Counted from the stretch's first letter, positions 2,590-18,601 are shown. The stretch: DNA of 19,797 nt from Fidelibacterota bacterium (GCA_046861645.1 JBHHUM010000037.1:1-19797), one strand, 5' to 3'. Translations and numbers: made by a program. Notes: generated by a model from the sequence alone, not told the origin.

Positions 2590-2886
2590 ATGAATCTGAC
2601 CAAACAAATGAGTATGCTTAGACGTCAGATTGATGACATCGATGATCAGCTCTGTAAACTTATTATTAAGCGAATTGAACTCGGAAGAGAAATTGGGGAA
2701 GTCAAGTCAAATCTGGGTTTGCCCCTTAAGGATGAACAACGGGAAAACGAAATAATTAGAAGAGTCATTCGATTAACAGATGGGTACATAAGCCGTAAGG
2801 ATGTAACACGAATATTCAATGAGATCATAAAGGCCACCAAGCGAACTCATTTACTCAAAAGCAAGAAAACTGATAAGGAAAATTGA
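2590..2886 (+). CDS. Monofunctional chorismate mutase, type II (AroQ class)
   Basis: LRRQIDDIDDQL..LI.KR.ELGREIG.VK....LPLKD.QRENEII is the CM_2 signature; 98 aa. Confidence 0.88.
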   Translation: MNLTKQMSMLRRQIDDIDDQLCKLIIKRIELGREIGEVKSNLGLPLKDEQRENEIIRRVIRLTDGYISRKDVTRIFNEIIKATKRTHLLKSKKTDKEN

Positions 2887-2905
2887 CGTTCCAACTACAA
2901 AAGTC

Positions 2906-2934
2906 TTGCACTGCTGCGTCAAATAGTTTAATAT
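2906..2934 (+). promoter_or_regulatory. Candidate promoter of the aromatic supra-operon leader
   Basis: TTGCAC (2906-2911) - 17 nt - TAATAT (2929-2934), 9 nt before the leader ATG. Confidence 0.6.
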
Positions 2935-2943
2935 CGCCGCAAC

Positions 2944-3018
2944 ATGAAACAGACAGATAACCGAATTTTCAGCTACTACTGGTATTTTACTAAGGAGGGG
3001 TTGGTCCAGCGACCTTAG
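2944..3018 (+). CDS. Attenuator leader peptide MKQTDNRIFSYYWYFTKEGLVQRP (24 aa; Phe/Tyr/Trp control codons)
   Basis: ATG 2944 to TAG 3018. Codons TTC AGC TAC TAC TGG TAT TTT (2968-2988) give 6 aromatic residues in 7. Lies between a promoter and a terminator directly upstream of trpE. Confidence 0.85.
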   Translation: MKQTDNRIFSYYWYFTKEGLVQRP

Positions 3019-3046
3019 GCGATACCGCTATATTTGCTGAGATTTC

Positions 3047-3073
3047 AACCCCGCTCTTTAGCGGGGTTTTTTT
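3047..3073 (+). terminator. Intrinsic attenuator terminator upstream of trpE
   Basis: Stem AACCCCGCT (3047-3055) / AGCGGGGTT (3060-3068), loop CTTT, T7 run 3067-3073. Competing antiterminator GGGGTTG (2997-3003) : CAACCCC (3046-3052). Confidence 0.9.
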
Positions 3074-3088
3074 ATCTGGTAAAAAACA

Positions 3089-4564
3089 ATGAGAAGAATG
3101 GAAAAAGACGAGTTCCTACAACTGGCCGAGAAGTACAGAACGGTTCCTGTTTACCAGAGAGTACTGGCGGATTTGATCACTCCCGTATCAACCTATATGA
3201 GCCTCCAAAGAGATTTCCCCTATGCCTTTATACTCGAGTCAGTAGAGAAGGGTAAACAATATTCACGATACTCTTATGTAGGATTTAACCCCAAGTTGGT
3301 TCTTGAATATAGAGCAGGCATAACAACTGTACATAGCGCGGAAGGAAAAGAGAATAAAAACGAACCGTTCCTCTCTCTTCTCCGCAGTACAATGGCTAAC
3401 TATTCAACTCCAAAACTACCTGGGCTACCTTCATTCTCTGGTGGTCTAGTTGGATACTTTGGCTACGAAACGATTACCTTGGTAGAGGATGTACCCATCA
3501 GATCCCAGGGAGATAATGGGGTACCCGAAGCCTTGTTTATGCTATTCGAAGAATTGATAGCATTCGATCACCTGAAAGGACAACTCGTCATATTCTTTAA
3601 TGTCTCTCTTGATGAGAACACCGATTTAGATGATGCCTTTGCTCATGCTCACGAGTGCATTGATACAACTCGAAAGAGACTGCAAACAAATATTCATTCT
3701 CAAACTCCCGTTAAGGTTGAGCAGAGTAAACTCTATTCGAACTTTACTAAATCCCAGTTTTCTACCGCTGTAAAAAAGGCAAAGGACTATATCACTGCTG
3801 GTGATGCTTTCCAGATTGTCCTCAGTCAACGATTTCATCGTCATACATCAGTAAAGCCTATTATTCTTTACCGGGCACTACGCACCGTCAACCCATCTCC
3901 ATATATGTTTCACCTGAAGCTCAATGACTTCGATATAATCGGTGCATCACCTGAACTTCTCGTAAAGGTAACCGATGATTTAGTGGAGGTTCGACCCATA
4001 GCCGGTACTCGTTCTAGAGGGAAGACACCTGAGGAAGATATCGTTATCGCTAAAGAATTATTAACTGATGAAAAAGAAAAAGCCGAACACCTCATGCTCC
4101 TCGATCTCGGCCGCAATGATGTAGGACGTGTAGCAGAATTCGGATCCGTCCACGTGGATGAATATATGGTTGTGGAAAATTACTCCCATGTCATGCATAT
4201 CGTCTCCGACGTGAAAGGAAAACTGAACGGTAAACACGATGCTCTTGATGCTCTGATGAATGCCTTTCCAGCCGGAACCACTACTGGCGCCCCAAAAATT
4301 CGTGCCATGGAAATTATCTATGAGCTGGAGCCAACCCACCGCGGTATCTATTCGGGAGCCGTGGGGTATCTCGATTTCTGTGGCGACCTGAACACCTGTA
4401 TCGCTATTCGCACGATGATCATGAAAGATGGGCTGGTTTTCTTCCAGTCCGGAGCAGGTATCGTTTATGATTCCGATCCCCAAAAAGAGTATGAAGAAAC
4501 AGTTAGCAAAGCAGAAGCAATAATGAGCGCCATTGACTTTTCAGAAAGAGGTCTTATTTCCTGA
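3089..4564 (+). CDS. trpE: Anthranilate synthase component I
   Basis: FILES and NPSPYM Trp-feedback motifs, GASPE, PIAGTR, EKAEHLMLLDLGRND, GAPKIRAMEII; first gene of the trp block. Confidence 0.95.
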   Translation: MRRMEKDEFLQLAEKYRTVPVYQRVLADLITPVSTYMSLQRDFPYAFILESVEKGKQYSRYSYVGFNPKLVLEYRAGITTVHSAEGKENKNEPFLSLLRSTMANYSTPKLPGLPSFSGGLVGYFGYETITLVEDVPIRSQGDNGVPEALFMLFEELIAFDHLKGQLVIFFNVSLDENTDLDDAFAHAHECIDTTRKRLQTNIHSQTPVKVEQSKLYSNFTKSQFSTAVKKAKDYITAGDAFQIVLSQRFHRHTSVKPIILYRALRTVNPSPYMFHLKLNDFDIIGASPELLVKVTDDLVEVRPIAGTRSRGKTPEEDIVIAKELLTDEKEKAEHLMLLDLGRNDVGRVAEFGSVHVDEYMVVENYSHVMHIVSDVKGKLNGKHDALDALMNAFPAGTTTGAPKIRAMEIIYELEPTHRGIYSGAVGYLDFCGDLNTCIAIRTMIMKDGLVFFQSGAGIVYDSDPQKEYEETVSKAEAIMSAIDFSERGLIS

Positions 4565-5169
4565 TGATCCTGGTATTAGACAACTATGATTCATTCACCT
4601 ACAATCTGGTCCAGGCTTTAGGATCGTTAGACAGCAACATTACAGTTGTTCGTAACGATGAGATAACCAATTTGGAAATCAGAAACATGAATCCAAACAG
4701 GATCGTGATCTCACCCGGTCCAGGACGACCTGAAAACGCGGGTCTTTCAGTTGAAGTCATCCGAGTATTCGGTAGTCAGATACCTATACTTGGTGTCTGT
4801 CTTGGACATCAGGCTATTACCGTAGCTTTTGAGGGAAAAGTGATACCTGCGCCGGAAATTTTACATGGAAAAACTTCCCACATCATCCACAATGGGACCC
4901 CCCTTTTTAAAAATGTGGAATCACCTCTGATAGCTACCCGTTATCATTCTCTTATGATTGAAAGAGAATCTCTTCCATCGTGTTTGAAAATTATAGCAGA
5001 AACTGAAACTGGAATGATTATGGCCGTGAAACATAAAGAGTGGCCCGTTTACGGTGTCCAGTTCCATCCTGAATCCATCGCCACCAAGACAGGAACAATG
5101 ATCCTTGAAAACTTTCTATCAATAGAGACTGAGTACCTTTCTAAAAATCATAAGGAGTTTTTATCATGA
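4564..5169 (+). CDS. trpG: Anthranilate synthase component II (glutamine amidotransferase)
   Basis: DNYDSFTYNL, ISPGPG, GVCLGHQ, RYHSL, GVQFHPES; TGATG overlap with trpE. Confidence 0.95.
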   Translation: MILVLDNYDSFTYNLVQALGSLDSNITVVRNDEITNLEIRNMNPNRIVISPGPGRPENAGLSVEVIRVFGSQIPILGVCLGHQAITVAFEGKVIPAPEILHGKTSHIIHNGTPLFKNVESPLIATRYHSLMIERESLPSCLKIIAETETGMIMAVKHKEWPVYGVQFHPESIATKTGTMILENFLSIETEYLSKNHKEFLS

Positions 5170-5279
5170 AAACCCAATCCATAATGACCAACATAAATAG
5201 GTCCAAGAAAAGATCGGCTTCGCATTTAAAATCTTACATCGACGTACTTCATTTAATTATTCACATCTTTCATAAATGA
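5166..5279 (+). CDS. Small ORF of unknown function, 37 aa (MKTQSIMTNINRSKKRSASHLKSYIDVLHLIIHIFHK)
   Basis: ATGA overlap with the trpG stop and strong SD TAAGGAG (5151-5157) 8 nt upstream; fills most of the trpG-trpD gap. Confidence 0.45.
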   Translation: MKTQSIMTNINRSKKRSASHLKSYIDVLHLIIHIFHK

Positions 5280-5304
5280 TAATTAGTAGAGATGTGAGGT
5301 AGCT

Positions 5305-6303
5305 GTGAAAGAAATATTGGAACAACTTCTTGACAGACAGGACCTGTCACGAAATCAAGCGCAACAGGTTATGAAGAGAATAATGTCTGGTGAGTTCAAT
5401 GATGCTCAGATTGCTGGCTTCCTAATGACCTTACGGGCAAAAGGTGAAACGGTAGAAGAAATTACAGGTTTCACATCAGCCATGCGCGAAAAGATGATTT
5501 CCGTAGATATTGATTCTCCCGCCATAGACATGTGTGGTACAGGTGGCGATGCAAAAGGGACATTCAATATTTCTACAGCAGCATCTTTTGTAGTTGTCGG
5601 AGCAGGTATCAAAGTAGCCAAACATGGTAATCGGTCCATGACTTCTAAATCTGGCTCAGCTGATGTCCTGCAGGCACTAAAGGTTCCCATTGACAAAACA
5701 GCAGAAGAGATTGCTCAAGACATTGAATCCATTGGGCTCGGTTTCATCTTCGCCCCGGTTTTTCACCCTGCCATGAAGTATGCCATTGGCGCCCGAAAAG
5801 CTTTAGCCACCAGAACCATATTCAATATTCTTGGTCCTCTCTGCAATCCAGCCCATGTAAAAGCTCAGGCTATGGGAATCTTTCATGCTGATCTGACGGA
5901 ACTACAGGTAAAAGTATTGAAGGAGTTAGGATCAACAGACGTTATGGTTTTCCACGGTCGGGATGGACTTGACGAGATATCCACCACTACTACTACACAG
6001 GTAAGTCAGATGCATGAGAGTAGTGAGATTAGAACCTACGAGTTAGACGCTCAAGCTCTCGGATTACCCCGGGCAACACTACAAGATCTGGTTGGTGGAA
6101 CTCCAGAGGAAAACGCCGGCATAATACAGGAAATCCTGTCTGGAGAAAAAGGTCCGAAAAGGGACATTGTTTTGCTGAATGCCGCGGCAGGGATTGTAGT
6201 CGGTGGCAAAGCTGATAACCTGGAAACAGGTCTCACGTTAGCTGCGGAATCAATTGACTCCGGTGCCGGAAAAAATATTCTGAATCAGTTGGCTTTAACA
6301 TGA
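5305..6303 (+). CDS. trpD: Anthranilate phosphoribosyltransferase
   Basis: DMCGTGGD, FNIST, KHGNRS..SKSGSADVL, FHPAMK, GLDEIS; GTG start with GAGGT SD. Confidence 0.97.
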   Translation: MKEILEQLLDRQDLSRNQAQQVMKRIMSGEFNDAQIAGFLMTLRAKGETVEEITGFTSAMREKMISVDIDSPAIDMCGTGGDAKGTFNISTAASFVVVGAGIKVAKHGNRSMTSKSGSADVLQALKVPIDKTAEEIAQDIESIGLGFIFAPVFHPAMKYAIGARKALATRTIFNILGPLCNPAHVKAQAMGIFHADLTELQVKVLKELGSTDVMVFHGRDGLDEISTTTTTQVSQMHESSEIRTYELDAQALGLPRATLQDLVGGTPEENAGIIQEILSGEKGPKRDIVLLNAAAGIVVGGKADNLETGLTLAAESIDSGAGKNILNQLALT

Positions 6304-7076
6304 AAAATATTCTGGACGAAATAATAGACCATAAGCGAAAAGAGGTACAACTTACCTCCGTTCTTAATCCTTTATCCTACGATCGATCATCTGCATTAAA
6401 ATTTAGGTCTCTCGCCACAGCATTATCAACACCGGGCATCCAGGTCATTGCCGAGATCAAACTGAAATCTCCCAGCTCTGGTGATATTCAGACTGAAGTA
6501 AATCCCGTGAAAATTGCTCAAGATTACGAAAGTGCTGGGGCTGCAGCTATCTCTGTACTAACCGATAATAAATATTTTGGTGGTAACCTGGAAATTCTTC
6601 GTCAGGTACGTCAGTCAGTTTCAATCCCTGTCTTGCGGAAGGATTTCATTATCTCAGATTACCAGCTCTACGAATCGGCAGAGGCAGGTGCAGATGCCAT
6701 TCTCCTCATCGCCGAAGCCCTGACAAATGAAAAGATGTTTCAGTTATATTCATTGGCTCAAAATCTTGGGCTCGATGTTCTGGTTGAGTTTCACTCCTCC
6801 AGGTATCTTCCTCTTATCTCTGACCTGAATCCAGGAATCGTAGGCCTGAATTGCCGCGACTTAACGACTATGACTGTGGATTTAAAACGTTTTGAGTTAC
6901 TACTCGATGATCTTCCTAAGGATGCTATTAATGTAGCGGAGAGCGGGATTTACACTGCTGCTGACTTGAAGTATGTGTCCAGACTGGGTTATAACGCAGC
7001 TCTGATTGGAACTTCGCTGATGAAAACTCATGACCCGGGAGCTACCCTTAAACAGTTGTTGGAGACACACAAGTGA
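6300..7076 (+). CDS. trpC: Indole-3-glycerol phosphate synthase
   Basis: IAEIKLKSPS.G, ISVLTD..YFGG, LRKDFII..YQ, GADAILLI, AESGI. Confidence 0.96.
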   Translation: MKNILDEIIDHKRKEVQLTSVLNPLSYDRSSALKFRSLATALSTPGIQVIAEIKLKSPSSGDIQTEVNPVKIAQDYESAGAAAISVLTDNKYFGGNLEILRQVRQSVSIPVLRKDFIISDYQLYESAEAGADAILLIAEALTNEKMFQLYSLAQNLGLDVLVEFHSSRYLPLISDLNPGIVGLNCRDLTTMTVDLKRFELLLDDLPKDAINVAESGIYTAADLKYVSRLGYNAALIGTSLMKTHDPGATLKQLLETHK

Positions 7077-7705
7077 TTCCAGTAAAGATATGCGGTATTA
7101 CCAATCCTGATGATGCCCTTTATGCAGCAAATGTAGGTGCTTCAGCAGTGGGTTTCATCTTTTTTAAGAAAAGTCCCCGAGCTATTTCTCTGCTAAAAGC
7201 TTCTAAAATTACCAGTGTCCTCTCCCCTAAACTGAAGAAAGTAGGAGTATTTGTAAACCACAGTCGAGATTTTATTGAAAAAGCCATCCGTTTTGTTCCC
7301 TTGGATATAATTCAACTCCACGGTAAGGAAACTCCCGAGTTTTGCTCAGGATTTTCAGTTCCTGTAATTAAGGCTTTTCGCCTTAAAAATAGAGATACAC
7401 TTTCTACGATAAATGACTTTGCTGTACACGCTTTTTTAGTGGACACGTGGCAGGATGGAGAATTCGGTGGTACGGGAAAAACATTCGATTGGTCACTACT
7501 CAACAATTACTCGGGAGAGATACCTATGATCCTCTCAGGTGGTCTTAATCCGGAAAATGTCCTGGAGGCTGTGAAAGCAGTTCGACCAGCAGCAATAGAC
7601 ATCAACAGTGGGGTAGAAACGCTACCCGGCCAAAAGAATAAACATAAACTGTGGGCACTCTTTCAACAAATCAAGGCTACAGAAAACACTGGATTTCAAT
7701 TCTAA
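7073..7705 (+). CDS. trpF: Phosphoribosylanthranilate isomerase
   Basis: [44 protein letters not shown]. Confidence 0.96.
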
Positions 7706-7706
7706 G

Positions 7707-8912
7707 ATGAAAGTGCTCACAAATTATAAGCTTCCCGATGATTTTGGCCACTTTGATCAATATGGAGGACGATATGTACCAGAGATCCTCATCCCTTCTC
7801 TTACAGCATTGGAACAGTGTTACCAGAAAGTAAAAGCAGATGCCGCTTTTCAGGCTGATTTATCATATTTGTTAAAACACTACGCAGGAAGACCGACACC
7901 CCTGTACTACGCTCGTAGATTATCGGAAGAACTTAGATTCGAAGTATGGCTTAAGAGAGAAGACCTCAACCATACGGGCGCTCATAAGATTAACAATGCT
8001 CTCGGACAGATTCTGCTTGCTAGCCAGATGGGAAAAAAACGAATCATAGCGGAGACAGGAGCCGGTCAACATGGAGTAGCCGTAGCAACAGTGACCGCCC
8101 TGTTCGGACTTAAGTGCATCATCTACATGGGAGAAGAAGACATTCAACGCCAGAAACTCAATGTTTTTCGGATGAATCTCTTAGGTGCAGAGGTACGAGC
8201 AGTATCCACGGGAAGTGCCACCCTGAAGGACGCTACCAACGAGGCTATCCGCGACTGGGTCACCAATGTTGATACATCCTACTACCTTCTCGGTTCAGCG
8301 GTAGGTCCCCACCCTTACCCGATGATGGTCAGGGATTTCCAATCTGTAATAGGAAGGGAAACAAAGGAGCAATTCAAGACTGAAACCGGTAAGGACTTAC
8401 CCGATCATATTATCGCCTGTGTAGGTGGGGGAAGCAATGCTATGGGAATCTTTTTTCCTTTCCTGGAAGACGAAGTCTCACTAACAGGTATTGAAGCAGG
8501 TGGTCTAGGACTGAATTCAGGACAACACGCAGCCACTCTCACCAAAGGCGAATTCGGTGTACTTCACGGTTCAGCCAGTTTCTTACTTCAAGACGAGCAA
8601 GGTCAGGTGACCCTTCCTCACTCAATATCTGCTGGGCTTGATTATCCCGGTGTAGGTCCCGAGCTTAGTTACTTAAAATCAACAGAACGAGTACACTACA
8701 CAACGGCTACAGATGTTGAAGCTGTGAGAGCCTTTAAATGGCTATCCAAGAAGGAAGGTATTCTTCCTGCTCTTGAATCGGCGCATGCTCTGGCTTATCT
8801 ACTCCAGCCAGATAACGAAATTAGTTCTGGTAAACACGTTGTGGTCTGTCTCTCAGGTCGGGGAGACAAGGATGTAAACACAGTTGCAGATTCGATGGAA
8901 GTTAATTTATGA
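7707..8912 (+). CDS. trpB: Tryptophan synthase beta subunit
   Basis: [16 protein letters not shown] (PLP lysine), [36 protein letters not shown]. Confidence 0.98.
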
Positions 8913-9679
8913 ACCGCATCCAAACCCTATTCCATCAGTCTAATGAAAAGGTGATTCCTTTCTTTACTGCAGGTTATCCACGCTTGGATAGTACCATCGA
9001 TCTAGTGCTGGCTGCCGAGCGGGGTGGGGCTGCAATGGTAGAAATTGGGATTCCCTTTTCCGATCCTATCGCGGATGGTCCGGTCATTCAACAATCCAGC
9101 CATATAGCCCTCCAAAATGGGATAACGTTAGCGATGATTCTCCAACAAGTAAGACAGATCAGGAAAACCTCTTCAATCCCTATCGCCCTCATGGGGTACT
9201 TAAATCCAATCCTTCATTTTGGACGACAGACATTCCTTGCTGAAGCTCGAGATGCAGGTATAGACGGCCTTATTATTCCTGATTTACCTGCAACAGAAGC
9301 AGAGGAATTTGTCTCTCTTACCAGGGTTCATGAAATTTCACTCATTCTCCTCATAGCGCCCAACACACCCGGTAAAGACATCACTCACATTTCCCGACTT
9401 ACACAGGACCTCATTTATTGTGTAGCGGTACAAGGAATCACAGGCGCCAGACTGAACGGGGTAGAAGGATTGACTGCCTACTTAAAGCGTGTAAAAAAAT
9501 ACTCCAGATCACCTTTCGTAGTAGGGTTTGGAATTAAGACTCGAGAGGATGTCCAGAAAATAAATCGAATCGCCCATGGCGCTGTAGTTGGAACCAACTT
9601 ATTAAAAAAGATCAAAAATGCTGATAACCCTATCGAAGTAGCTGAAACATACATTCGTGAACTGGGAAGAAAGTTTTGA
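8909..9679 (+). CDS. trpA: Tryptophan synthase alpha subunit
   Basis: [40 protein letters not shown]. Confidence 0.97.
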
Positions 9680-10263
9680 CAACAATTGGCATACAGGGTG
9701 GACAAGGCAGTTTTTGTGATGAAGCAGCTCGAGAGTTCGCAGTTAACCACGGATTAGAGGAGATAAAACTATCCTACTTGATTTCCTCAGAAAAAGTCCT
9801 GTCGGCAGTTGAAAACGGTGATACCGAATACGGCATTTTTGCCATGGAGAATGCACAGGGGGGTGTAGTAATAGAAAGTGTAGAGGCATTAGCTCAACAT
9901 CGTTGTGAAATTGTAGAGATGTTTTACATTCCCATCAGCCAGAACCTTTTGGCACGCAGAGGCGTCTTCATTGGCGATATAACGGAGATCCATTCTCATC
10001 AACAGGCTCTTCGTCAGTGCCGTGATTATCTCTCAGAGCATTTCTGGTCTCGTCCTCTGATAGAGGAAGATGATACTGCTGAAGCGGCACGACGTTTAAA
10101 GGAGGGTAAACTACCATCAACCGCAGCAGTTATCGCACCCAAATCATGTGCCAATATCTATGGTTTAGTTATCCTACAGGAAAATATTCATGACCTGAAA
10201 AATAATCTCACCCTATTTCTGGGTGTAAAGAAATTTTCTGCAAGACAATCTGAAAAGGAATAG
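9676..10263 (+). CDS. pheA: Prephenate/arogenate dehydratase, catalytic domain only (no C-terminal ACT domain)
   Basis: IGIQGGQGSF, AMENAQGG.V, IHSHQQALRQC, DTAEAA, IHD..NNLTLF; ends just after the PDT domain (195 aa); TTG start overlapping the trpA stop. Confidence 0.85.
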   Translation: MTTIGIQGGQGSFCDEAAREFAVNHGLEEIKLSYLISSEKVLSAVENGDTEYGIFAMENAQGGVVIESVEALAQHRCEIVEMFYIPISQNLLARRGVFIGDITEIHSHQQALRQCRDYLSEHFWSRPLIEEDDTAEAARRLKEGKLPSTAAVIAPKSCANIYGLVILQENIHDLKNNLTLFLGVKKFSARQSEKE

Positions 10264-10267
10264 AATA

Positions 10268-10996
10268 ATGAGTGATTCTATTGGTATAATCGGTTTTGGA
10301 AGATTTGGACGAATACTGGGACAGATACTTTCTGATGATTTTAAAGTTCAAGCTTACGATGTTTCTTCTCAGGAAGAGCAATTTGGAGTAGAATTCGTAG
10401 ATAGAGAATTAATTCTACAAAATAAAACTCTTTTCTTAGCAGTTCCCATCCGGGATTTCAAGAAATTAATTTTAGACATTAGTCCCCACTTGAACGAGGG
10501 AACAACTGTCATCGATGTCTGTTCTGTTAAAGTTTATCCCGTTACCGTTATGACTGAAACCCTCCCTGATCCTATTGGGATAATTGCCACTCACCCTCTT
10601 TTTGGTCCCGATTCCATAGACAAGCCAAACGGTCTGACGATGATGATGTATCCAGCCAGGGATGTTTATAAAAAGTTTCCATTCTGGAGCGATTACTTTC
10701 ATTCCAAGGCGATAAATATCGTGGAGATGACTCCGGAAGAACATGATAACCTGGCGGCCAAAACACAAGGGATCACACACTTTATCGGTCGTGTACTACG
10801 TAATGCCGGGGTGAAAGAGACCTCGATTGACACCCTGGGTTTTAAAGATCTCCTGGGAGTTATAGACCAAACCTGTAACGATAGTTGGGAATTGTTTACG
10901 GATCTTCAAAATTTCAACCCCTATACACTTCCTATGATAGAGAAATTGGAATCATCAATACATACCATTCTTGGGAAAATATTAAGGAGAGAATAA
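10268..10996 (+). CDS. tyrA: TyrA-family prephenate/arogenate dehydrogenase (plant-ADH-like clade)
   Basis: GIIGFGRFG Rossmann motif, DVCSVK, THPLFGP, EEHD..AA.TQGITHFIGRVL, NDSWELF.DLQNFNPY. Confidence 0.9.
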   Translation: MSDSIGIIGFGRFGRILGQILSDDFKVQAYDVSSQEEQFGVEFVDRELILQNKTLFLAVPIRDFKKLILDISPHLNEGTTVIDVCSVKVYPVTVMTETLPDPIGIIATHPLFGPDSIDKPNGLTMMMYPARDVYKKFPFWSDYFHSKAINIVEMTPEEHDNLAAKTQGITHFIGRVLRNAGVKETSIDTLGFKDLLGVIDQTCNDSWELFTDLQNFNPYTLPMIEKLESSIHTILGKILRRE

Positions 10997-10997
10997 T

Positions 10998-12086
10998 ATG
11001 CAGGTAGTATTGAGTCCAACCGCTACAGAAGACCAAATCAAACGAGTAAAGGAACGTATTCGGGAATTTGGGTTGACCCCCCATGATATTCCTGGTCAGG
11101 AGCCTAAAACGATAGGAATCACTGGTACGATAAATCAAGAAATACGGATCTATCTGGAAGGCTTGCCAGCAGTCTCAAAAGTGATCCCCATATCTCCACC
11201 CTTTAAGCTGGCCAGCAGAGATATGCATCCTGAGAACTCCTTTGTAACGGTAGGAGATGTAAAGTTCGGAGACGGCAATGTTGTAATGATTGCGGGTCCC
11301 TGTGCTGTAGAGAGTGAGGAGCAGACCCTGCGGATTGCCAGAGAAGTGGCTGACCGTGGAGCTCAGATTCTGAGAGGAGGTGCTTACAAACCGCGAACTT
11401 CGCCTTATTCCTTCCAGGGTTTAGGTGAATTAGGGCTGGAAATCCTGGCTAAGGCTCGAGAATTGACGGGATTACCTATCGTTACCGAAGTACTCGATCA
11501 CACAACTGTTGAGTTAGTGGGACAATATGCGGATATGCTTCAAATTGGAACGCGAAACATGCAGAATTTCTCCCTTCTAAAAGCATCCGGTCAATCTCGA
11601 AAACCCGTTCTGCTGAAAAGAGGTATGAGCGCCACACTTCAGGAAACCTTGATGTCCGTTGAATACCTGATGTCTTACGGCTGCCACGATGTTGTGGTTT
11701 GTGAAAGAGGAGTTCGTACTTTCACCAGTCATGCCCGCAATACGTTGGATGTCAGTGTTATCCCCGCTTTTAAGCAGATCAGCCATCTACCCATTATTGT
11801 GGACCCGAGTCACTCCAGTGGACAACGGTATAGCGTCATCCCTCATGCACTGGCAGGACTGGGCGCCGGAGCTGATGGACTCATTGTGGACGTCCATGAT
11901 CACCCCGAAGAGGCGCTGTGTGACGGTCCACAGGCACTAATACCAAATGAATTTTCTAAACTGATGAAAACAGCTAAAGGAGTCTGCGCAGCGATGGGTA
12001 AATCCATTGGTAGCGACCAATTCCTTAATCCAAGCCATAACGGTAAAACTGCTAATACTCCCCATAAAATGTCCCAACAGCCTTAA
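10998..12086 (+). CDS. aroF: DAHP synthase type I-beta with N-terminal ferredoxin-like/ACT regulatory domain
   Basis: IAGPCAVES, RGGAYKPRTSPYSFQGLG, QIGTRNMQNF, LLKRG, CERG, DPSH; ~70-aa N-terminal extension. Confidence 0.95.
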   Translation: MQVVLSPTATEDQIKRVKERIREFGLTPHDIPGQEPKTIGITGTINQEIRIYLEGLPAVSKVIPISPPFKLASRDMHPENSFVTVGDVKFGDGNVVMIAGPCAVESEEQTLRIAREVADRGAQILRGGAYKPRTSPYSFQGLGELGLEILAKARELTGLPIVTEVLDHTTVELVGQYADMLQIGTRNMQNFSLLKASGQSRKPVLLKRGMSATLQETLMSVEYLMSYGCHDVVVCERGVRTFTSHARNTLDVSVIPAFKQISHLPIIVDPSHSSGQRYSVIPHALAGLGAGADGLIVDVHDHPEEALCDGPQALIPNEFSKLMKTAKGVCAAMGKSIGSDQFLNPSHNGKTANTPHKMSQQP

Positions 12087-12125
12087 TCACATGTAAAACG
12101 AAAAATAAATGAAAACAATTTCACA

Positions 12126-13373
12126 ATGAAACTGACAGGTGAACTTTCATTTCCGGGTGATAAATCCATCTCCCACCGAGCCCTCATGTTGGCCGCTCTA
12201 TCAGAGGGCAAGTGTACAATCAAAAACCTCTCTACGGGGAAAGATGTGGAATCTACCCATCAATGTTTGCTTTCCTGCAGTATAGAATCACAACTTGATA
12301 ACGGAAAGATCAGGATTACAGGCAAACCTCTCCAAAATCCATCCCAAATCCTCGATTGTGGGAACTCCGGGACGACAGCTCGATTGCTGGCGGGGTTACT
12401 CGCCGGGCAGAAAGTAACTGCAACACTCGAAGGGGATCATTCCCTCTCCAGTCGACCCATGAACCGGATTATCGATCCTTTATCCAAAATGGGTGCTGAT
12501 GTCGATTCCTCAGATGGATATCTACCCTTAAACCTTATTCCCCGGCCTCTTCACGGTATCCAGTACACTCCACCCATCAGCAGTGCTCAAGTTAAATCAG
12601 CAGTAATCTTAGCCGGATTAGGTGCTGAAGGTGAAACAACCCTAATAGAACCAATCAAAACTCGGGATCATACCGAGCGAATGCTGAAGACACTGGGGGG
12701 TTCAATTACTCTTCAAGGTAGCAGAATTACTGTTTCCCCCCTGCAACAGCCACTGGAAACATTTGAACTCACAATTCCCGGAGACCCCTCTACGGCTGCT
12801 TATTTTGCCGCTGCTGCCACTCTTATTCCTAATTCAGAACTTAGATTAATAAATCTCCTCGCCAATCCTACCAGAACAGGATTCTTTACTGTTCTGGAAA
12901 AAATGGGAGCCAGTATAGAAATACTCTTAAAAAATCCTAATGGTGGAGAAGAAGTTCACAATCTTAAAATTTCCCCTGGAACCCTAACAGGAATTACCCT
13001 GTCCCCAGAACAGATTCCTACCATCATAGATGAACTCCCTATCCTGGCAATCGTTGCCACACAGGCAGAAGGTCGTACCGTAGTAACTGGCGCCAGTGAG
13101 CTCCGAGTGAAGGAATGTGATAGATTACAGGCAATTTGTAAAAACCTGCATAGAATGGGTGCTAAGATTACTGAATTATTAGATGGATTCGTTATCACCG
13201 GTCCTACCTCATTGCACCAGGCAAGGATCTCCACCTACAACGATCATCGCATTGCTATGGCTTTTACCATCGCCAGTCTTATTGCAGATGGGCCCGTCAC
13301 CATTGATAACTCGACCTGTATGGAGATATCGTGTCCAGATTTCAAAACTATGTTGCAAGCCATAATCCGATGA
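12126..13373 (+). CDS. aroA: EPSP synthase (3-phosphoshikimate 1-carboxyvinyltransferase)
   Basis: PGDKSISHR, DCGNSGTT.RL, SL..RPM, SSAQVKSA, RDHTERM, ELRVKE.DR, DHRIAM. Confidence 0.97.
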   Translation: MKLTGELSFPGDKSISHRALMLAALSEGKCTIKNLSTGKDVESTHQCLLSCSIESQLDNGKIRITGKPLQNPSQILDCGNSGTTARLLAGLLAGQKVTATLEGDHSLSSRPMNRIIDPLSKMGADVDSSDGYLPLNLIPRPLHGIQYTPPISSAQVKSAVILAGLGAEGETTLIEPIKTRDHTERMLKTLGGSITLQGSRITVSPLQQPLETFELTIPGDPSTAAYFAAAATLIPNSELRLINLLANPTRTGFFTVLEKMGASIEILLKNPNGGEEVHNLKISPGTLTGITLSPEQIPTIIDELPILAIVATQAEGRTVVTGASELRVKECDRLQAICKNLHRMGAKITELLDGFVITGPTSLHQARISTYNDHRIAMAFTIASLIADGPVTIDNSTCMEISCPDFKTMLQAIIR

Positions 13374-14221
13374 ATTTTGCTGTAATTGGACATCCTATTA
13401 CCCACAGTTTGAGTCCCGAGCTCCACAACTGGATATTCAAAAAATTGGGAATCGATGCCCACTATTCTAAGGTGGATATAAGTCGTGAAAAACTGGCTTA
13501 TTTCCTATCAGGGGTAAGCAGAAGCCAATTCCAGGGCTTCAATGTTACCCTACCACACAAGGAAGCCGTTATTCCACTACTGGATAACGTTGAGGAGCAG
13601 GCGGAGCAGATCGGAGCTGTGAATTGCGTTGTGAACAATGACCAAAAACTCAAGGGTTACAATACTGATTGGATCGGTTTTCAAAGAACATTACAGGATG
13701 AAGATATTTCCGTCAGGAATCGAGCCTGTTTTATACTGGGAGCTGGTGGTGCCTCCCGTGCAATCCTCTATACCCTACTCAAGGAAGGGGCAGATCCTGT
13801 TCTTCTTCATAATCGACACCAGAAAAAGGCGTTGCAATTACAAACCCACATGATGTCTCATTTCACATCTTCCACAATCGCTGTAATATCTCTACAGGAA
13901 TTGACGAACTTTTGGAACGAAGACCTGATTTTGATCAATACTACATCTGTGGGGATGACAAGTAATAATTCCTTATTACCAGTTAAATATTTTCATAGAA
14001 GACAGACTTTTATTGATGTCATTTACACGCCCTTAGAAACAACTCTTTTGCGTCAAGCTTCTGCTGTAGGTGCCAAGACAGTAAATGGACTTGCCATGTT
14101 CATCCACCAGGGATTGGCATCGATTGACCTCTGGCTGAAGCAACCTATTTCACAAAGTGTTAACCGGGAAGAAATCAAAAGTTATTTGATACGAAAACTC
14201 CAGGAGGAAATACCAGCTTGA
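13370..14221 (+). CDS. aroE: Shikimate dehydrogenase
   Basis: VIGHPI.HSLSP.LH, GFNVTLPHK, IGAVN, GYNTD..GF, LGAGGASRA, INTTSVG, GL.MFIHQG. Start placed at ATG 13370 (ATGA overlap with aroA) instead of 13331. Confidence 0.95.
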   Translation: MNFAVIGHPITHSLSPELHNWIFKKLGIDAHYSKVDISREKLAYFLSGVSRSQFQGFNVTLPHKEAVIPLLDNVEEQAEQIGAVNCVVNNDQKLKGYNTDWIGFQRTLQDEDISVRNRACFILGAGGASRAILYTLLKEGADPVLLHNRHQKKALQLQTHMMSHFTSSTIAVISLQELTNFWNEDLILINTTSVGMTSNNSLLPVKYFHRRQTFIDVIYTPLETTLLRQASAVGAKTVNGLAMFIHQGLASIDLWLKQPISQSVNREEIKSYLIRKLQEEIPA

Positions 14222-15378
14222 TGCAACGGCTAAGATGGCTCACCGCAGGGGAATCCCACGGCAAGGGATTATTAGGGATATTGGAGGGCATCCCAGCCGG
14301 ACTGGAAATCGAGGAGGATTACATTCACACTCATTTAGCCAGACGTCAGAAAGGTCACGGCCGTGGGGGTCGGATGAAAATTGAAAATGATCGGGCAGAG
14401 ATATACTGTGGCATACGGCATGGTAAAACCCTTGGTTCACCTATCGGTCTGATCCTTCCCAATCAGGATTGGGAAAACTGGAAGACGAAAATGTCAACCA
14501 ATCCAGTTGATGAAGAGGTAAAAAAAGTAACCCTTCCTCGACCGGGACATGCTGATCTGGCCGGAGTTGAAAAATTCGGTTTCGAAGATATCCGCAATGT
14601 TCTGGAACGTTCCTCTGCACGGGAAACAGCCATGCGTGTCGCTCTTGCTACTATCTGCCGGAAGCTTCTGGACGAGGTTGGTATCCAAGTGGGCAGTCGT
14701 GTAATTCAGATTCACATGATAAAAGATTCTTCACCCCTCCCTGAAAACATGTCCCCAGAGCAACTCAACGAACTCGTTGACGCATCTCCTGTTCGTTGCC
14801 TGGACAAGGAAGCTGAAAAGAAAATGATCGCCATTATTGATGAAGCTAAAATCAGAGGGGATTCGGTTGGAGGTCTTTTCGAAGTTGTAGCAACTGGATT
14901 ACCTTATGGCCTCGGTTCCTACACTCACTGGGACCGTAAGCTCCACACTAGAATAACTGCTGCAATGATAAGTATTAATGGTTTAAAGGGAGTTGAAATT
15001 GGGAAAGGCTTTGCAGGAGCCAATCTATTTGGAAGCGAAATTCACGATGAAATTGGCTGGGATGGAAATAGCTACGTCCGCTATTCAAATAATGCCGGTG
15101 GACTGGAAGGAGGTATGAGTAATACCGAAACCATAATAGTCCGCATGGTCATGAAGCCTATCTCAACCCTCATTCAACCTTTACGTTCAGTCGATATAGT
15201 TACCAAAGAGGAGAAAGGTGCCCATAAGGAGAGAACCGATACCTGCGCCGTCCCGGCTGCGTCCGTCATCGCCGAGAGTATGCTCTGCTTCGTCCTTGCT
15301 GATTCACTTTTGGAGAAGTTTGGAGGTGATACCATGGATCAATTAAAAGCTCATTTGAAAGCAAGCGCACACTACTGA
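14221..15378 (+). CDS. aroC: Chorismate synthase
   Basis: TAGESHG, RPGHADL, ERSSARETA, GDSVGG, NNAGGLEGG, MKPI; ATG 14221 (or TTG 14218) overlaps the aroE stop. Confidence 0.97.
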   Translation: MQRLRWLTAGESHGKGLLGILEGIPAGLEIEEDYIHTHLARRQKGHGRGGRMKIENDRAEIYCGIRHGKTLGSPIGLILPNQDWENWKTKMSTNPVDEEVKKVTLPRPGHADLAGVEKFGFEDIRNVLERSSARETAMRVALATICRKLLDEVGIQVGSRVIQIHMIKDSSPLPENMSPEQLNELVDASPVRCLDKEAEKKMIAIIDEAKIRGDSVGGLFEVVATGLPYGLGSYTHWDRKLHTRITAAMISINGLKGVEIGKGFAGANLFGSEIHDEIGWDGNSYVRYSNNAGGLEGGMSNTETIIVRMVMKPISTLIQPLRSVDIVTKEEKGAHKERTDTCAVPAASVIAESMLCFVLADSLLEKFGGDTMDQLKAHLKASAHY

Positions 15379-15458
15379 GTCGATAGTTGGCAGGAAATTA
15401 ATAGGATGATGAAAGGTCTTGCTGAAAACCGTGAGATATTTCCAGCTTTAGATTAATT

Positions 15459-15980
15459 ATGAATAGTCAATCAAAATTCAATATCTTCCTGATTGGGATG
15501 ATGGGAAGTGGTAAATCGAGCATAGGTCGGCAGCTGGCAAAACTACTTGACTTGGTCTTTGTAGACATTGATAAGGAATTAGAAATAATAACTAAGCTAT
15601 CAATTAATGAAATGTTCAAGAAATTCGGCGAGGAAAAATTTCGAGAGATGGAAGGAGCATTTTTCAGGGAAAAAGCGACTCAGGACCATTTGGTGTTTGC
15701 CACCGGTGGTGGGATAATCCTGAGCAAGCAAAACAGAACGATCATGAGGGAATCGGGAACGGTCATTTTTCTGGACGTACCCCTCAATATTCTCACTGAA
15801 CGTCTCAATGGCGTAAGTGACCGCCCCCTGCTGAAAAGTTCCCATGATATCAGCACAGACCTGACCTCGATCTGGAAAACTCGAGAGAAATTCTATCGTA
15901 ACACAGCTCATTTCACACTTGATGCCACTCCCTCACCTCACAAATGCGCTAACACCATTCTGGAGATTCTGGGAAAGTGA
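15459..15980 (+). CDS. aroK: Shikimate kinase
   Basis: LIGMMGSGKS P-loop, DID, GE..FR.ME, ATGGG, RPLL. Confidence 0.96.
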   Translation: MNSQSKFNIFLIGMMGSGKSSIGRQLAKLLDLVFVDIDKELEIITKLSINEMFKKFGEEKFREMEGAFFREKATQDHLVFATGGGIILSKQNRTIMRESGTVIFLDVPLNILTERLNGVSDRPLLKSSHDISTDLTSIWKTREKFYRNTAHFTLDATPSPHKCANTILEILGK

Positions 15981-17035
15981 AAACAATCACTGTCGAGCTG
16001 GGGAGTAGATCCTATCCTATTCATGTATCAAACGGCCTTTTGCAAAAACTACCTGATATTCTAAAAGAGCAGTACAACTTTAAATCCTGTGTATTGATTT
16101 CACAACCTGCCATTTTGAAATTGTTTACCCCTCATTTGCAGTCATCAGTCCTCAATTACCACAAAATAATTATTCCACCTGGTGAACAGGCCAAAGATTT
16201 TAACGAATACCGAAAAGTAATCAGTCAAATGATCGAGATGGGTTGCGACCGTTCGTGGGTTATTCTAGCCCTAGGCGGAGGTGTGGTTGGTGACCTTGCT
16301 GGATTCGCTGCAGCTACCTTTATGCGGGGAATTAACTATTTCCAGATTCCAACGACTCTTTTGGCCATGGTCGATTCAGCCATAGGTGGTAAAACAGGAC
16401 TCAATTTGCCAGAAGGAAAGAATCTGATTGGGGCTTTTCATCAACCCCAAGCCGTGTTTATTGATCCTACTCTGCTGACTTCTCTGCCCCGGAAAGAAGT
16501 TATTTCAGGATTAGCAGAAATAATAAAGTATGGCGCCATCCGTGATCGAGATTTCCTTTCCTGGATCGCCTCTAACCTGGATGAGATCAATCACTTCCCT
16601 TATGAGTCGGCCATTGCACAATCGTGCTCCATCAAAGCCCAAGTCGTTTCGCTAGACGAACACGAAGGTGACCTCAGAAGAATTCTTAATTTTGGTCACA
16701 CCATCGGTCATGCCCTGGAAGCCTATCTTGGTTATGGCAATATTCGACATGGAGAAGCTGTGGCCTATGGTATGATCTGTGCTACCTGGATTTCCCAACA
16801 ATTAGGGTATCTTCGGAATACTGATTATCAATTCCTAACGGAAACGATTATGAAACTTCCGCTACCCACTCTGCTTAATATCGAATCAACTGCAATCCTC
16901 GACCTTATCCAAAAGGATAAGAAAATGCAAAATGGCGTATTAAACTTTGTTATCTTAGATGGACTGGGAAAAGCAACCACTTCAACACAAGTGCCTGACG
17001 AACTGATAGTAGAATCACTAACAAGATTAATATGA
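15977..17035 (+). CDS. aroB: 3-dehydroquinate synthase
   Basis: GE..K, ALGGGVVGDLAGF, PTTLLAMVDSAIGGKTG, GKNLIGAF.QP, LNFGHTIGHALE, HGEAV. Confidence 0.97.
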   Translation: MKTITVELGSRSYPIHVSNGLLQKLPDILKEQYNFKSCVLISQPAILKLFTPHLQSSVLNYHKIIIPPGEQAKDFNEYRKVISQMIEMGCDRSWVILALGGGVVGDLAGFAAATFMRGINYFQIPTTLLAMVDSAIGGKTGLNLPEGKNLIGAFHQPQAVFIDPTLLTSLPRKEVISGLAEIIKYGAIRDRDFLSWIASNLDEINHFPYESAIAQSCSIKAQVVSLDEHEGDLRRILNFGHTIGHALEAYLGYGNIRHGEAVAYGMICATWISQQLGYLRNTDYQFLTETIMKLPLPTLLNIESTAILDLIQKDKKMQNGVLNFVILDGLGKATTSTQVPDELIVESLTRLI

Positions 17036-17472
17036 AGTTTCTCATCATCAATGGTCCCAATCTAAACCTACTGGGGAAGAGAGAGCCGGAAATCTATGGA
17101 AGTGAAACTTTGGATGAGATAATGACCTGGCTTAAAGCAACCCCTGAAGCAAGAGGACATCAATTGGAGCATTTCCAATCCAATCATGAGGGTTCCATCA
17201 TAGAACGTATTCACAATGCCTGGGAAGATGTAGACGGAATTATTATCAACCCGGGAGCTTTTACCCACTACTCATATGCTATTCGAGATGCACTTGCTGC
17301 AGTGGGAATAACGACGGTAGAAGTTCACCTGAGCGACATTAACCAGAGAGAAGATTTCAGAAAGATCTCAGTTATCGCACCTGTCTGCCTGGGACAGGTC
17401 TCCGGCTTAGGGAAAGAAAGCTATCTGGAAGGACTAAAAAAGTTGATTCATTCTTTTATCAATAAAAACTAA
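17032..17472 (+). CDS. aroQ: Type II 3-dehydroquinate dehydratase
   Basis: INGPNLNLLG.REP.IYG, QSNHEG, IINPGAFTHYS.AIRDA, EVHLS.I..RE.FR. Confidence 0.97.
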   Translation: MKFLIINGPNLNLLGKREPEIYGSETLDEIMTWLKATPEARGHQLEHFQSNHEGSIIERIHNAWEDVDGIIINPGAFTHYSYAIRDALAAVGITTVEVHLSDINQREDFRKISVIAPVCLGQVSGLGKESYLEGLKKLIHSFINKN

Positions 17473-17542: not shown

Positions 17543-18601
17543 TTATATTAAACCCTTTTCTACCATTAATTCAGCGTTAAGGATAGCTCCTCCAGCAGCA
17601 CCTCGGATAGTATTATGGGATAAGACCGAAAACTTATAATCCAAAAGGGAACAGGGCCGCAGCCTACCTACACTCACCACCATCCCTCCTTCCAGATCCC
17701 GATGGAGTTTGGGTTGTGGAAACATATCTTCACTAAAATATTGAAGGGGTCTCTCTGGTGCTGAAGGAAGTCTCAATTCTTGAGGATCCCCAACGAATTT
17801 GTTCCAAACTTGCACGATGTCTTCTTTTGCAACCTCCCTACCCAACTTCACAGAAACAGACTCCAGATGCCCGTCACTTACCGGTACCCTATTACACTGA
17901 GCGCTTATGGCTACGCATGCCGGTTCTACTGTACTACCATTCAGTTGACCTAAAATCTTCAGCGGTTCCGTCTCCATCTTTTCTTCTTCTCCGGAAATGA
18001 ACGGAATCACATTGTCCATGTGGACAGGTTCAGATACACCAGCGTATCCTGCTCCCGACAATGCCTGCATGGTAACGACATTAACCGCTTCCAGCCCGAA
18101 TGCATCCAGAAGGGGCTTCAGCGCCATCACCATTCCAATAGTAGAGCAATTAGGATTCGTCACAATCATCCCTCCGTCGAATGATTGACGTTTAACCAAG
18201 TTGAGATGGTCAGCATTGATCTCCGGTACAAGTAAAGGAACATCAGGATCCATACGGTGATTTCTTGAATTGGAAATAACGACATAGCCGGCTTGGGCAA
18301 ACTCTGCCTCCACTTCCCCCGCCACTGAAGAATCGAGGCCGGAGAAGACGATCCTGCACGGCAGATCAGGCACACACTCCTGTACAACCATCTCCGCTTG
18401 AACGGGGGGAAGCTGTACTGTCTGAAACCAGTTGACTACCTCCCGATACCGCTTTCCCGCAGAGCGTTCCGAAGCTGCCAGAGCTGTAATCTCGAACCAC
18501 GGATGGTCAGCCAATAATTCGACGAATTTCTGACCGACGCTGCCAGTGGCACCCAAAATCCCTACCGGAATCCATTGTTTGAATCTCTGTTTTACCTTCA
18601 T
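17543..18601 (-). CDS. asd: Aspartate-semialdehyde dehydrogenase, archaeal/eukaryotic-type
   Basis: GILGATGSVGQKF..LL..HPWFE, ASERSAGKRY, NPNCST (catalytic Cys), QALSGAG, EEEKME.E, RVPV.DGH, HNTIRGAAG. Confidence 0.95.
   Translation of the reverse strand: MKVKQRFKQWIPVGILGATGSVGQKFVELLADHPWFEITALAASERSAGKRYREVVNWFQTVQLPPVQAEMVVQECVPDLPCRIVFSGLDSSVAGEVEAEFAQAGYVVISNSRNHRMDPDVPLLVPEINADHLNLVKRQSFDGGMIVTNPNCSTIGMVMALKPLLDAFGLEAVNVVTMQALSGAGYAGVSEPVHMDNVIPFISGEEEKMETEPLKILGQLNGSTVEPACVAISAQCNRVPVSDGHLESVSVKLGREVAKEDIVQVWNKFVGDPQELRLPSAPERPLQYFSEDMFPQPKLHRDLEGGMVVSVGRLRPCSLLDYKFSVLSHNTIRGAAGGAILNAELMVEKGLI

Follow-up and report, generated by a model that had tools for sequence, protein, structure and literature searches.

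The window analyzed in this work (the whole stretch of DNA examined, 19,797 nt) comes from the genome of an uncultured representative of Marinimicrobia and carries on its plus strand an operon of 16 genes, delimited by open reading frames and Pfam matches to positions 3089-17472. The genes are arranged in the order trpE, trpG, trpD, trpC, trpF, trpB, trpA, prephenate dehydratase, prephenate dehydrogenase, DAHP synthase, aroA, aroE, aroC, aroK, aroB and aroQ; trpE (3089-4564, Pfam) is the first of them and aroQ (Pfam), which ends at 17472, the last. They mostly overlap or stand a few bases apart, the terminator scan of the whole window detected no strong terminator-like site on the plus strand within the operon, and a convergent gene (17543-18601, ORF and Pfam) is located 3′ of it. 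Among public genomes, the closest counterparts of this TrpE, at 63-64% identity, come from metagenome-assembled genomes of Marinimicrobia or the FCB group. A search of sequencing runs for the stretch listed DNA contig sets of one study (X1-X4) and no RNA run.

Several features of the operon vary among relatives. Its DAHP synthase (10998-12086) is a class I enzyme with an FXD domain; in many relatives the same position is taken by a class-II enzyme (about 447 amino acids, PF01474), the loci of this type including L103, L105, L106, L114, L122 and L137. An A/T-rich gap of 135 nt (5170-5304), with no listed ORF or terminator-like site, separates trpG from the GTG start of trpD, and in relatives the corresponding distance lies anywhere between 0 and more than 500 nt. 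Foreign genes interrupt the supraoperon in some of these genomes (L109:5586-6686 and L098:11225-11605 on the minus strand, L118:10675-11760 on the plus strand), the inserts being a gene for a Fic/DOC protein at the DAHPS-aroA junction and one for a PD-(D/E)XK nuclease at the trpG-trpD junction.

Between the chorismate mutase gene (CM_2, Pfam E 3.2e-21; 2590-2886, plus strand), which stands directly upstream, and trpE lies a short open reading frame on the plus strand (2944-3018), composed of an ATG start, 24 sense codons in all and a TAG stop codon. It encodes the peptide MKQTDNRIFSYYWYFTKEGLVQRP and ends 70 nt before the trpE ATG (3089). Codons 9-15 (2968-2988), UUC AGC UAC UAC UGG UAU UUU, form the run F S Y Y W Y F, referred to below as the control run, in which six of seven consecutive codons are aromatic, one specifying Trp and five Phe or Tyr. 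This ORF had been noticed in the preliminary description of the sequence, all coordinates of which proved right, and translation together with Pfam bears out its remark that there is a single Trp codon and that trpE is the first gene. When the whole 2.5-Mb genome was scanned for short ORFs with an amino-acid run and a strong terminator, this leader was the sole case with an aromatic run. The chorismate mutase gene is placed upstream of the leader and therefore outside the unit subject to attenuation, and the Pfam scan named no aminotransferase among the operon ORFs; the earlier suggestion that the whole aromatic pathway is gated from this site was too wide. The synteny of chorismate mutase gene, leader and trpE is seen again in many relatives.

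To place the leader in its phylum, 251 genomes were searched and TrpE was found at E ≤ 1e-80 in 78 of them. Seventy-two of the 77 foreign TrpE loci were taken, giving 73 loci together with the window, and partial matches (G212, G241, G063, G140, G175) were left out. In 67 of the 73 loci trpE is preceded by a short ORF with at least one Trp codon and, 3′ of it, a hairpin and T-run, and in all 67 the leader stop codon is separated from the terminator arm by 22-42 nt. A genome of the same genus shows the same arrangement with 87% DNA identity and the leader MKQTDNRFFSYFWYFATEGLIRQP. Conservation of the aromatic codons upstream of trpE orthologues, the test by which the preliminary description had agreed to be refuted, went in its favour. 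The leader peptides are 12 to 30 residues long and their sequence beyond the aromatic run varies freely. The six loci with no leader are L120 and L142 (contig end), L161 and L162 (other gene order), and L095 (G203) and L102 (G229), which belong to one genus and have neither leader nor terminator before trpE. In the last two another gene extends to about 100 nt before trpE; their sister genomes (L110, L111) retain a short DFWWY or EFWWY leader. Outside the phylum, a script-based look at 75 of 80 TrpE loci, judged by eye, revealed mixed leaders only in the four nearest ones (L002-L005), which belong to Marinimicrobia/FCB and, in one case, KSB1, while L063 and L068 have Trp runs.

A promoter-like pair could be read from the sequence upstream of the leader: TTGCAC (2906-2911) and TAATAT (2929-2934), plus strand, spaced by 17 nt. 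The consensus promoter scan of the window did not list this pair, whose -35 hexamer matches the consensus in just three of six positions. With 9 nt between the end of its -10 box and the leader ATG, the 5′ UTR of the leader mRNA would be close to nil. In 39 of the 67 loci a TTG...TAnnnT pair lies upstream with its end at a distance of 4-10 nt from the start codon of the leader, versus 319 of 12199 random ATGs from the same loci (2.6%); a Shine-Dalgarno-like tetramer precedes the leader start in two of 67 loci, and the window has no such motif there. The sequences thus suggest that the mRNA from which the leader peptide is translated may be leaderless or nearly so.

The free RNA (2930-3075) folds with a predicted minimum free energy of -42.7 kcal/mol (z -3.27), a value reached by one of 200 shuffled sequences. 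The structure consists of a long three-part hairpin (2963-3046, plus strand) and, directly 3′ of it, the terminator hairpin. In the long hairpin the codon region (2963-2986) is paired with the spacer (3021-3046) by the helices UUUCAGC:GCUGAGA and UGGUAUU:GAUACCG, and the apical helix is formed by CUAAGG (2990-2995) and CCUUAG (3013-3018). The duplex of codon region and spacer amounts to -17.9 kcal/mol in the window, compared with a median of -7.5 kcal/mol when the spacers of other loci are offered. The intrinsic terminator found by the terminator scan (plus strand) has a stem of nine pairs, six of them G-C (3047-3055 with 3060-3068), a CTTT loop and a run of seven T residues (3067-3073), and it surpasses the remainder of the 14 terminator-like sites of the 19.8-kb window in both the number of pairs and the number of G-C pairs.

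The alternative structure, a putative antiterminator (2995-3054, plus strand), is built of a 5′ strand (2995-3012) and a 3′ strand (3033-3054), with GGGGUUGG (2997-3004) and CAACCCC (3046-3052) as their cores, and overlaps the 5′ arm of the terminator. GGGGUUG (2997-3003) pairs with CAACCCC (3046-3052), and the extended duplex AGGAGGGGUUGGU:UUCAACCCCGCU has an energy of -14.6 kcal/mol. Antiterminator and terminator exclude each other, as pairing of 2997-3004 with 3045-3052 uses up the terminator's 5′ arm.

The leader ORF of the window ends with a Pro codon followed by the stop codon (CCU UAG, 3013-3018), and Pro-stop ends of this kind (CCU UAG or CCU UAA) are common, being present also in L092, L094, L098, L105, L112, L115, L117, L122 and L133. 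A Pro-stop context slows termination of translation and could keep the ribosome over the antiterminator strand; alternatively, the motif could merely be the 3′ strand of a hairpin.

The effect of a ribosome on these structures was modelled by folding the full-length window RNA with every nucleotide kept unpaired between the 5′ end and a point 12 or 15 nt downstream of the first nucleotide of the codon in the A site. With F9, S10, Y11, Y12 or W13 in the A site the antiterminator formed completely (7/7 pairs) and the terminator not at all (0/9), and the same was obtained for Y14 with the short footprint. The outcome was the reverse (terminator 9/9, antiterminator 0/7) for Y14 with the long footprint, for F15 and for the stop codon. 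The modelled antiterminator is part of a longer helix of 2997-3012 with 3033-3052. Since it forms with the A site anywhere from F9 to W13, each of the three amino acids has at least one productive stall site in the model. Folding under ribosome footprints, proposed in the preliminary description as a check, thus gave the antiterminator at F9 to W13 and the terminator at the stop codon; the accompanying idea that a stall on an aromatic codon of any type frees the antiterminator holds in silico for F9 to W13 and fails for F15, where the antiterminator is predicted to be blocked; this last Phe codon is probably not a productive stall site.

Across the phylum the folding behaviour is less uniform. 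In full-length equilibrium folds the terminator was lost at any ribosome position in just 14 of the 67 loci (counted by eye); most loci keep it at equilibrium and would therefore depend on kinetic folding, on which the E. coli trpL system is held to rely. In folds of nascent RNA, the transcript was cut before the 3′ arm of the terminator and the boundary codon was defined as the one at which the advance of the ribosome abolishes the antiterminator. It lies no more than one codon from the last aromatic codon in 44 of the 61 loci with a defined boundary. In the same nascent folds the terminator arm was both sequestered at the stall and free at the stop codon in just 24 of 67 loci.

The two competing structures show compensatory changes among relatives. 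The segment following the last Trp codon pairs with the terminator arm of its own locus with a mean energy of -11.5 kcal/mol and with the arms of other loci with -9.3 kcal/mol (sd 0.25), and the own-arm value was reached by none of 2000 permutations, a test which overstates independence because related loci share both strands. The terminator arms vary by lineage (AACCCCG, AACCCUG, GCCUGCC, GCCCACU, ACGCCCCUG) and the upstream strand follows them; the KSB1 relative has the arm CCCACUAC, which is again matched upstream. Among 13 aligned relatives eight pairs of the antiterminator core are kept and four of the pairs have changed on both sides, with a covariation score of 0.207 versus 0.123 in shuffled alignments (reached in 0 of 500) and at most 0.170 with slid partners. 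The terminator is paired in 95.7% of cells, with 11 cells changed on both sides. The exchange of GGGGTTG:CAACCCC for the T7 terminator, postulated from the single sequence, is accordingly the conserved and co-varying core of the element in relatives.

The remaining helices did not pass the same check of stem covariation. The hairpin CTAAGG:CCTTAG, which had been proposed to hide the antiterminator strand, appears in the minimum-energy fold of the window and finds no backing in the 13 relatives, where 46% of its cells are paired, no better than in shuffles. Likewise, the long hairpin taken column by column (MAFFT alignment of 13 relatives) has 47.7% of cells paired and does not exceed the shuffled or slid controls. 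In an alignment-free test the codon region pairs with its own spacer at -10.7 kcal/mol and with permuted spacers at -8.5 kcal/mol (0 of 2000 permutations as good), and this duplex test is the only one to support some pairing between codon region and spacer in each locus.

Comparison of the leaders with the genes behind them suggests a correspondence, throughout the phylum, between the aromatic codons of a leader and the gene content of its operon. Operon content was established by tblastn with the proteins of the window, Pfam searches of unassigned frames and the position of convergent genes after trpA. All 12 complete trp-only operons have leaders with 0-2 Phe/Tyr codons in the 8-codon core and with WW or WWW runs (NNWWWE, NWWWQ, RWWK). 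Operons that contain further aromatic genes have 3-6 Phe/Tyr codons in the core in 30 of 42 cases, the full supraoperons being preceded by mixed F/Y/W leaders; the 12 other supraoperon leaders have just 0-2 (DFWWY, TWKWYF, LWWWTYF). The operons of family f22 contain the prephenate dehydrogenase gene (PDH_N+PDH_C, Pfam) and no pheA, and the cores of their leaders read YYWWYYY or NYWWYY, with three of the six leaders retaining Phe codons further upstream although pheA is elsewhere. Genome G013 (locus L122), from the same order as the window, has a supraoperon devoid of pheA and a leader, MNKTTITYLIGWAWYYYQRGLRLCP (core IGWAWYYY), devoid of Phe codons. No match to PF00800 (prephenate/arogenate dehydratase) was found in this 99%-complete genome, the control search being positive in 14 of 14 known genomes, and the organism is possibly auxotrophic for Phe, unless it makes Phe by an unknown route.

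In family f28 the trp operon is separate, and a second operon encodes a chorismate mutase-prephenate dehydrogenase fusion together with aroE-C-K-B-Q-DAHPS-aroA. This second operon is preceded by a terminator and by Tyr/Phe-rich leaders lacking Trp, MMKIDRTYTPFYYTLYFYGYIHTGPPIQTQ and MMKRELLNMPLNYTTYYYFNGQIEPGPRIRNH, with the runs TPFYYTLYFYGY and NYTTYYYFNG. Two further attenuator-like units were observed in a family with a separate trp operon, at about 1000-1280 and 2620-2900 of L165 (G074:C4) and about 2950-3120 of L166 (G088:C12, in reverse-complement orientation): one is a leader ending in NNNWWWCRE and a stop codon, with a terminator, upstream of a TrpB-like PALP gene, and the other a Tyr/Phe-rich leader without Trp, with a terminator, upstream of a CM-PDH fusion and aro genes.

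The correspondence has its exceptions. In L121 and L123 the leader has a Tyr codon, yet the operon is without tyrA. No Phe-rich leader was seen before the separate pheA genes of families f22 and f28 (G048, G053, G074), nor any leader in front of the aro operons that stand apart in f19 (G183, G232); for those of f26 (G051, G137) the search gave just a Phe-rich ORF that did not convince. The TrpE tree (77 rows, quick LG+G4) contains just three independent contrasts of operon type, none in the wrong direction, a number with which the sign test cannot reach significance.

Taken together, we are highly confident that the region between the chorismate mutase gene and trpE contains a real and conserved leader-peptide transcription attenuator. 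It is also probable, with less certainty, that this ribosome-mediated attenuator controls the 16-gene operon for the synthesis of chorismate and then of Trp, Phe and Tyr by the following three-tRNA mechanism. Transcription would start a few bases before the leader ATG, and a ribosome would translate the 24-codon leader while RNA polymerase moves ahead. When charged tRNA-Phe, tRNA-Tyr or tRNA-Trp is scarce, the ribosome would stall at F9, Y11, Y12 or W13 (perhaps also Y14) and cover the 5′ half of the long hairpin, leaving GGGGUUGG (2997-3004) free to pair with CAACCCC (3046-3052) as soon as the latter is made. The 5′ arm of the terminator would then be occupied and transcription would read through into trpE. 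When all three tRNAs are charged, the ribosome would reach the UAG codon (3016-3018) and cover the antiterminator strand, the terminator (3047-3068) would form and transcription would stop at the T-run.

That shortage of any one of Phe, Tyr and Trp is enough to open the leader, as in a three-way OR gate, is plausible and only slightly favoured, and we word it with caution because the run has just one Trp codon, because the Tyr codon of the aroR leader discussed below was inert and because the independent contrasts are few. Stalling at each codon type, and the sufficiency of one Trp codon, are what we infer from the arrangement of the codons.

The strongest competitor, which we hold to be unlikely though by no means negligible, is that the attenuator is real and answers effectively to one signal, either Trp only or, in the genus of the window, only Tyr and/or Phe, the other aromatic codons being passengers kept by ancestry or RNA pairing. 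This would suit the position of trpE as first gene and the pure Trp runs of deep-branching relatives. The UGGUAU of the control run is itself in a helix with GAUACC, which places the codons under a constraint at the RNA level as well, and a Tyr codon was inert in the aroR leader of C. glutamicum according to a review (PMC11802643). The link between operon content and codons is, moreover, carried by just three independent contrasts. Against the single-signal reading speak the composition of the run, one Trp codon versus five for Phe or Tyr, the leaders with Tyr and Phe and no Trp in front of the split-off tyrA-aro operons, the lack of Phe codons where Phe synthesis is missing (G013), and the stall sites F9 to W13, which all predict the same outcome.

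Control by tRNA charging at several codon types is much preferred to arrest of the ribosome by the nascent aromatic-rich peptide itself, for example a TnaC-like sensing of the free amino acid with slow termination at CCU UAG, which we regard as very improbable. Many leaders do end in Pro-stop (RP, QP, KP or CP before the stop codon), and the aromatic core W-Y or W-W is conserved at the peptide level. However, the residues outside the aromatic run vary freely in leaders of 12 to 30 residues, the conserved Gly is accounted for by the GGGGUU of the antiterminator strand and CCUUAG by RNA pairing, and leader make-up tracks the products of the pathway, as expected for charging control. Still less credible, and close to refuted, is a chance ORF in front of a hairpin (3047-3068) that merely terminates the upstream TenA-GNAT-chorismate mutase genes, since, although the terminator stands 160 nt past the stop codon of the chorismate mutase gene with no other terminator-like site in between, leader and terminator occur together in 67 of 73 loci, many of them without chorismate mutase upstream, a promoter-like pair lies between that gene and the leader, and antiterminator and terminator co-vary.

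It is a tentative possibility, rated somewhat below even, that the codon content of one attenuator family was re-written whenever the operon gained or lost a branch: W only for trp alone, Y/F without W for the split-off tyrA-aro operons, Y+W for operons that lack pheA, with no Phe codon left in the genome devoid of prephenate dehydratase, and F+Y+W in front of the fused supraoperon of 16 genes. Should each codon type prove to signal, the phylum would offer a natural, graded series of one-, two- and three-input, apparently leaderless attenuators, and the series would allow a direct test of how a ribosome integrates several amino-acid signals. One small RNA/peptide device seems to govern the costly aromatic pathway in a marine phylum that is abundant and uncultured, and the attenuator family, for which there is no Rfam family, ties its codon content to the controlled genes in a way that can be read from sequence. 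Leader codons can thereby annotate regulation and hint at auxotrophies from metagenomes, as with the Phe-less leader in the genome without prephenate dehydratase.

The same genome (G000, contig C5, minus strand) carries a candidate second leader-peptide attenuator, recognized from its sequence. Its leader MIVYTENLNNNNNANPKDPSDNLGVGEPV (L171:1255-1410, minus strand), with six Asn codons among seven, is built like the trpE attenuator, with a long hairpin and a strong terminator (fold z -3.55). Roughly 20 nt beyond it begins a gene for asparagine synthase (L171:1-1242, minus strand; Pfam Asn_synthase and GATase_7) that is cut by the contig end.

With respect to catalogued families, the Rfam scan of the whole window returned no family at its gathering score. 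Trp_leader (RF00513) scored 24.3 bits against a gathering score of 41 (E 0.0062) at 2996-3074, a match covering the antiterminator-terminator part downstream of the aromatic codons, and Phe_leader (RF01859) scored 19.1 bits against 55, again downstream of the aromatic codons and including the terminator. No T-box was matched up to E 10 in 2850-3120 or at the gathering score in the window. A TRAP-bound leader is recognized by 9-11 (G/U)AG triplets spaced by 2-3 nt; the region 2935-3090 contains just four scattered GAG/UAG triplets (by eye). What the window does possess are the sequence and folding features expected of a leader-peptide attenuator: a short ORF upstream of the first gene, a cluster of cognate codons, a terminator and an antiterminator exclusive with it, and, in the constrained folds, an antiterminator that is permitted by a stall at the control codons and prevented by a ribosome at the stop codon.

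The leader mechanism is a textbook one and not a new principle; its three-amino-acid version is uncatalogued. Leader-peptide attenuation has, to our knowledge, been dissected almost exclusively in Proteobacteria and Actinobacteria, and all aromatic leaders known to us, other than aroR, read a single amino acid. Neither a Phe+Tyr+Trp leader nor a leader peptide from Marinimicrobia turned up in a search of full-text literature, in which subscription journals are thinly covered. The element of the window resembles trpL of E. coli and Salmonella (the Yanofsky model) in having a short leader ORF before trpE, control codons just 5′ of the antiterminator strand and an intrinsic terminator, with termination favoured by a ribosome at the stop codon. 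It differs from trpL in that five Phe/Tyr codons flank a single Trp codon, where trpL has two Trp codons; in that the codon region is paired with the spacer adjacent to the terminator and encloses the antiterminator strand; and in that the attenuator, probably leaderless, controls 16 genes of three branches and the trunk. The pheL-pheA system of E. coli likewise combines Phe codons, terminator and antiterminator, but reads Phe only and controls a single gene.

Multivalent leaders are familiar from enterobacteria, where thrL responds to Thr and Ile and ilvL to Ile, Leu and Val. As proposed for the window, a single leader monitors several amino acids that the cell makes by way of the operon under its control; in thrL and ilvL these are other, non-aromatic ones. 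In B. subtilis the trp genes are part of an aromatic supraoperon with a TRAP-controlled attenuator before trpE. The window shares with it the joining of trp and other aromatic genes in one transcription unit and the attenuator upstream of trpE; the TRAP protein, bound to (G/U)AG repeats, senses free Trp, whereas the window has a translated leader.

A survey of Actinobacteria found no Phe or Tyr attenuators there (PMC1262725). The preliminary description knew of no experimentally characterized example of this kind; mixed aromatic leaders as such do have a precedent in the aroR leader (Phe-Tyr-Phe) located before aroF in C. glutamicum, which is partly characterized and answered to Phe and not to Tyr limitation (Neshat et al. 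2014, as cited in the review PMC11802643). According to the same review, the trp operon of this bacterium, a member of another phylum, is equipped with a trpL of its own. Hence aroR, unlike the leader of the window, has no Trp codon. The two systems are alike, as far as aroR is known by description, in placing mixed aromatic codons before an operon of the shikimate pathway, a likeness of function only.
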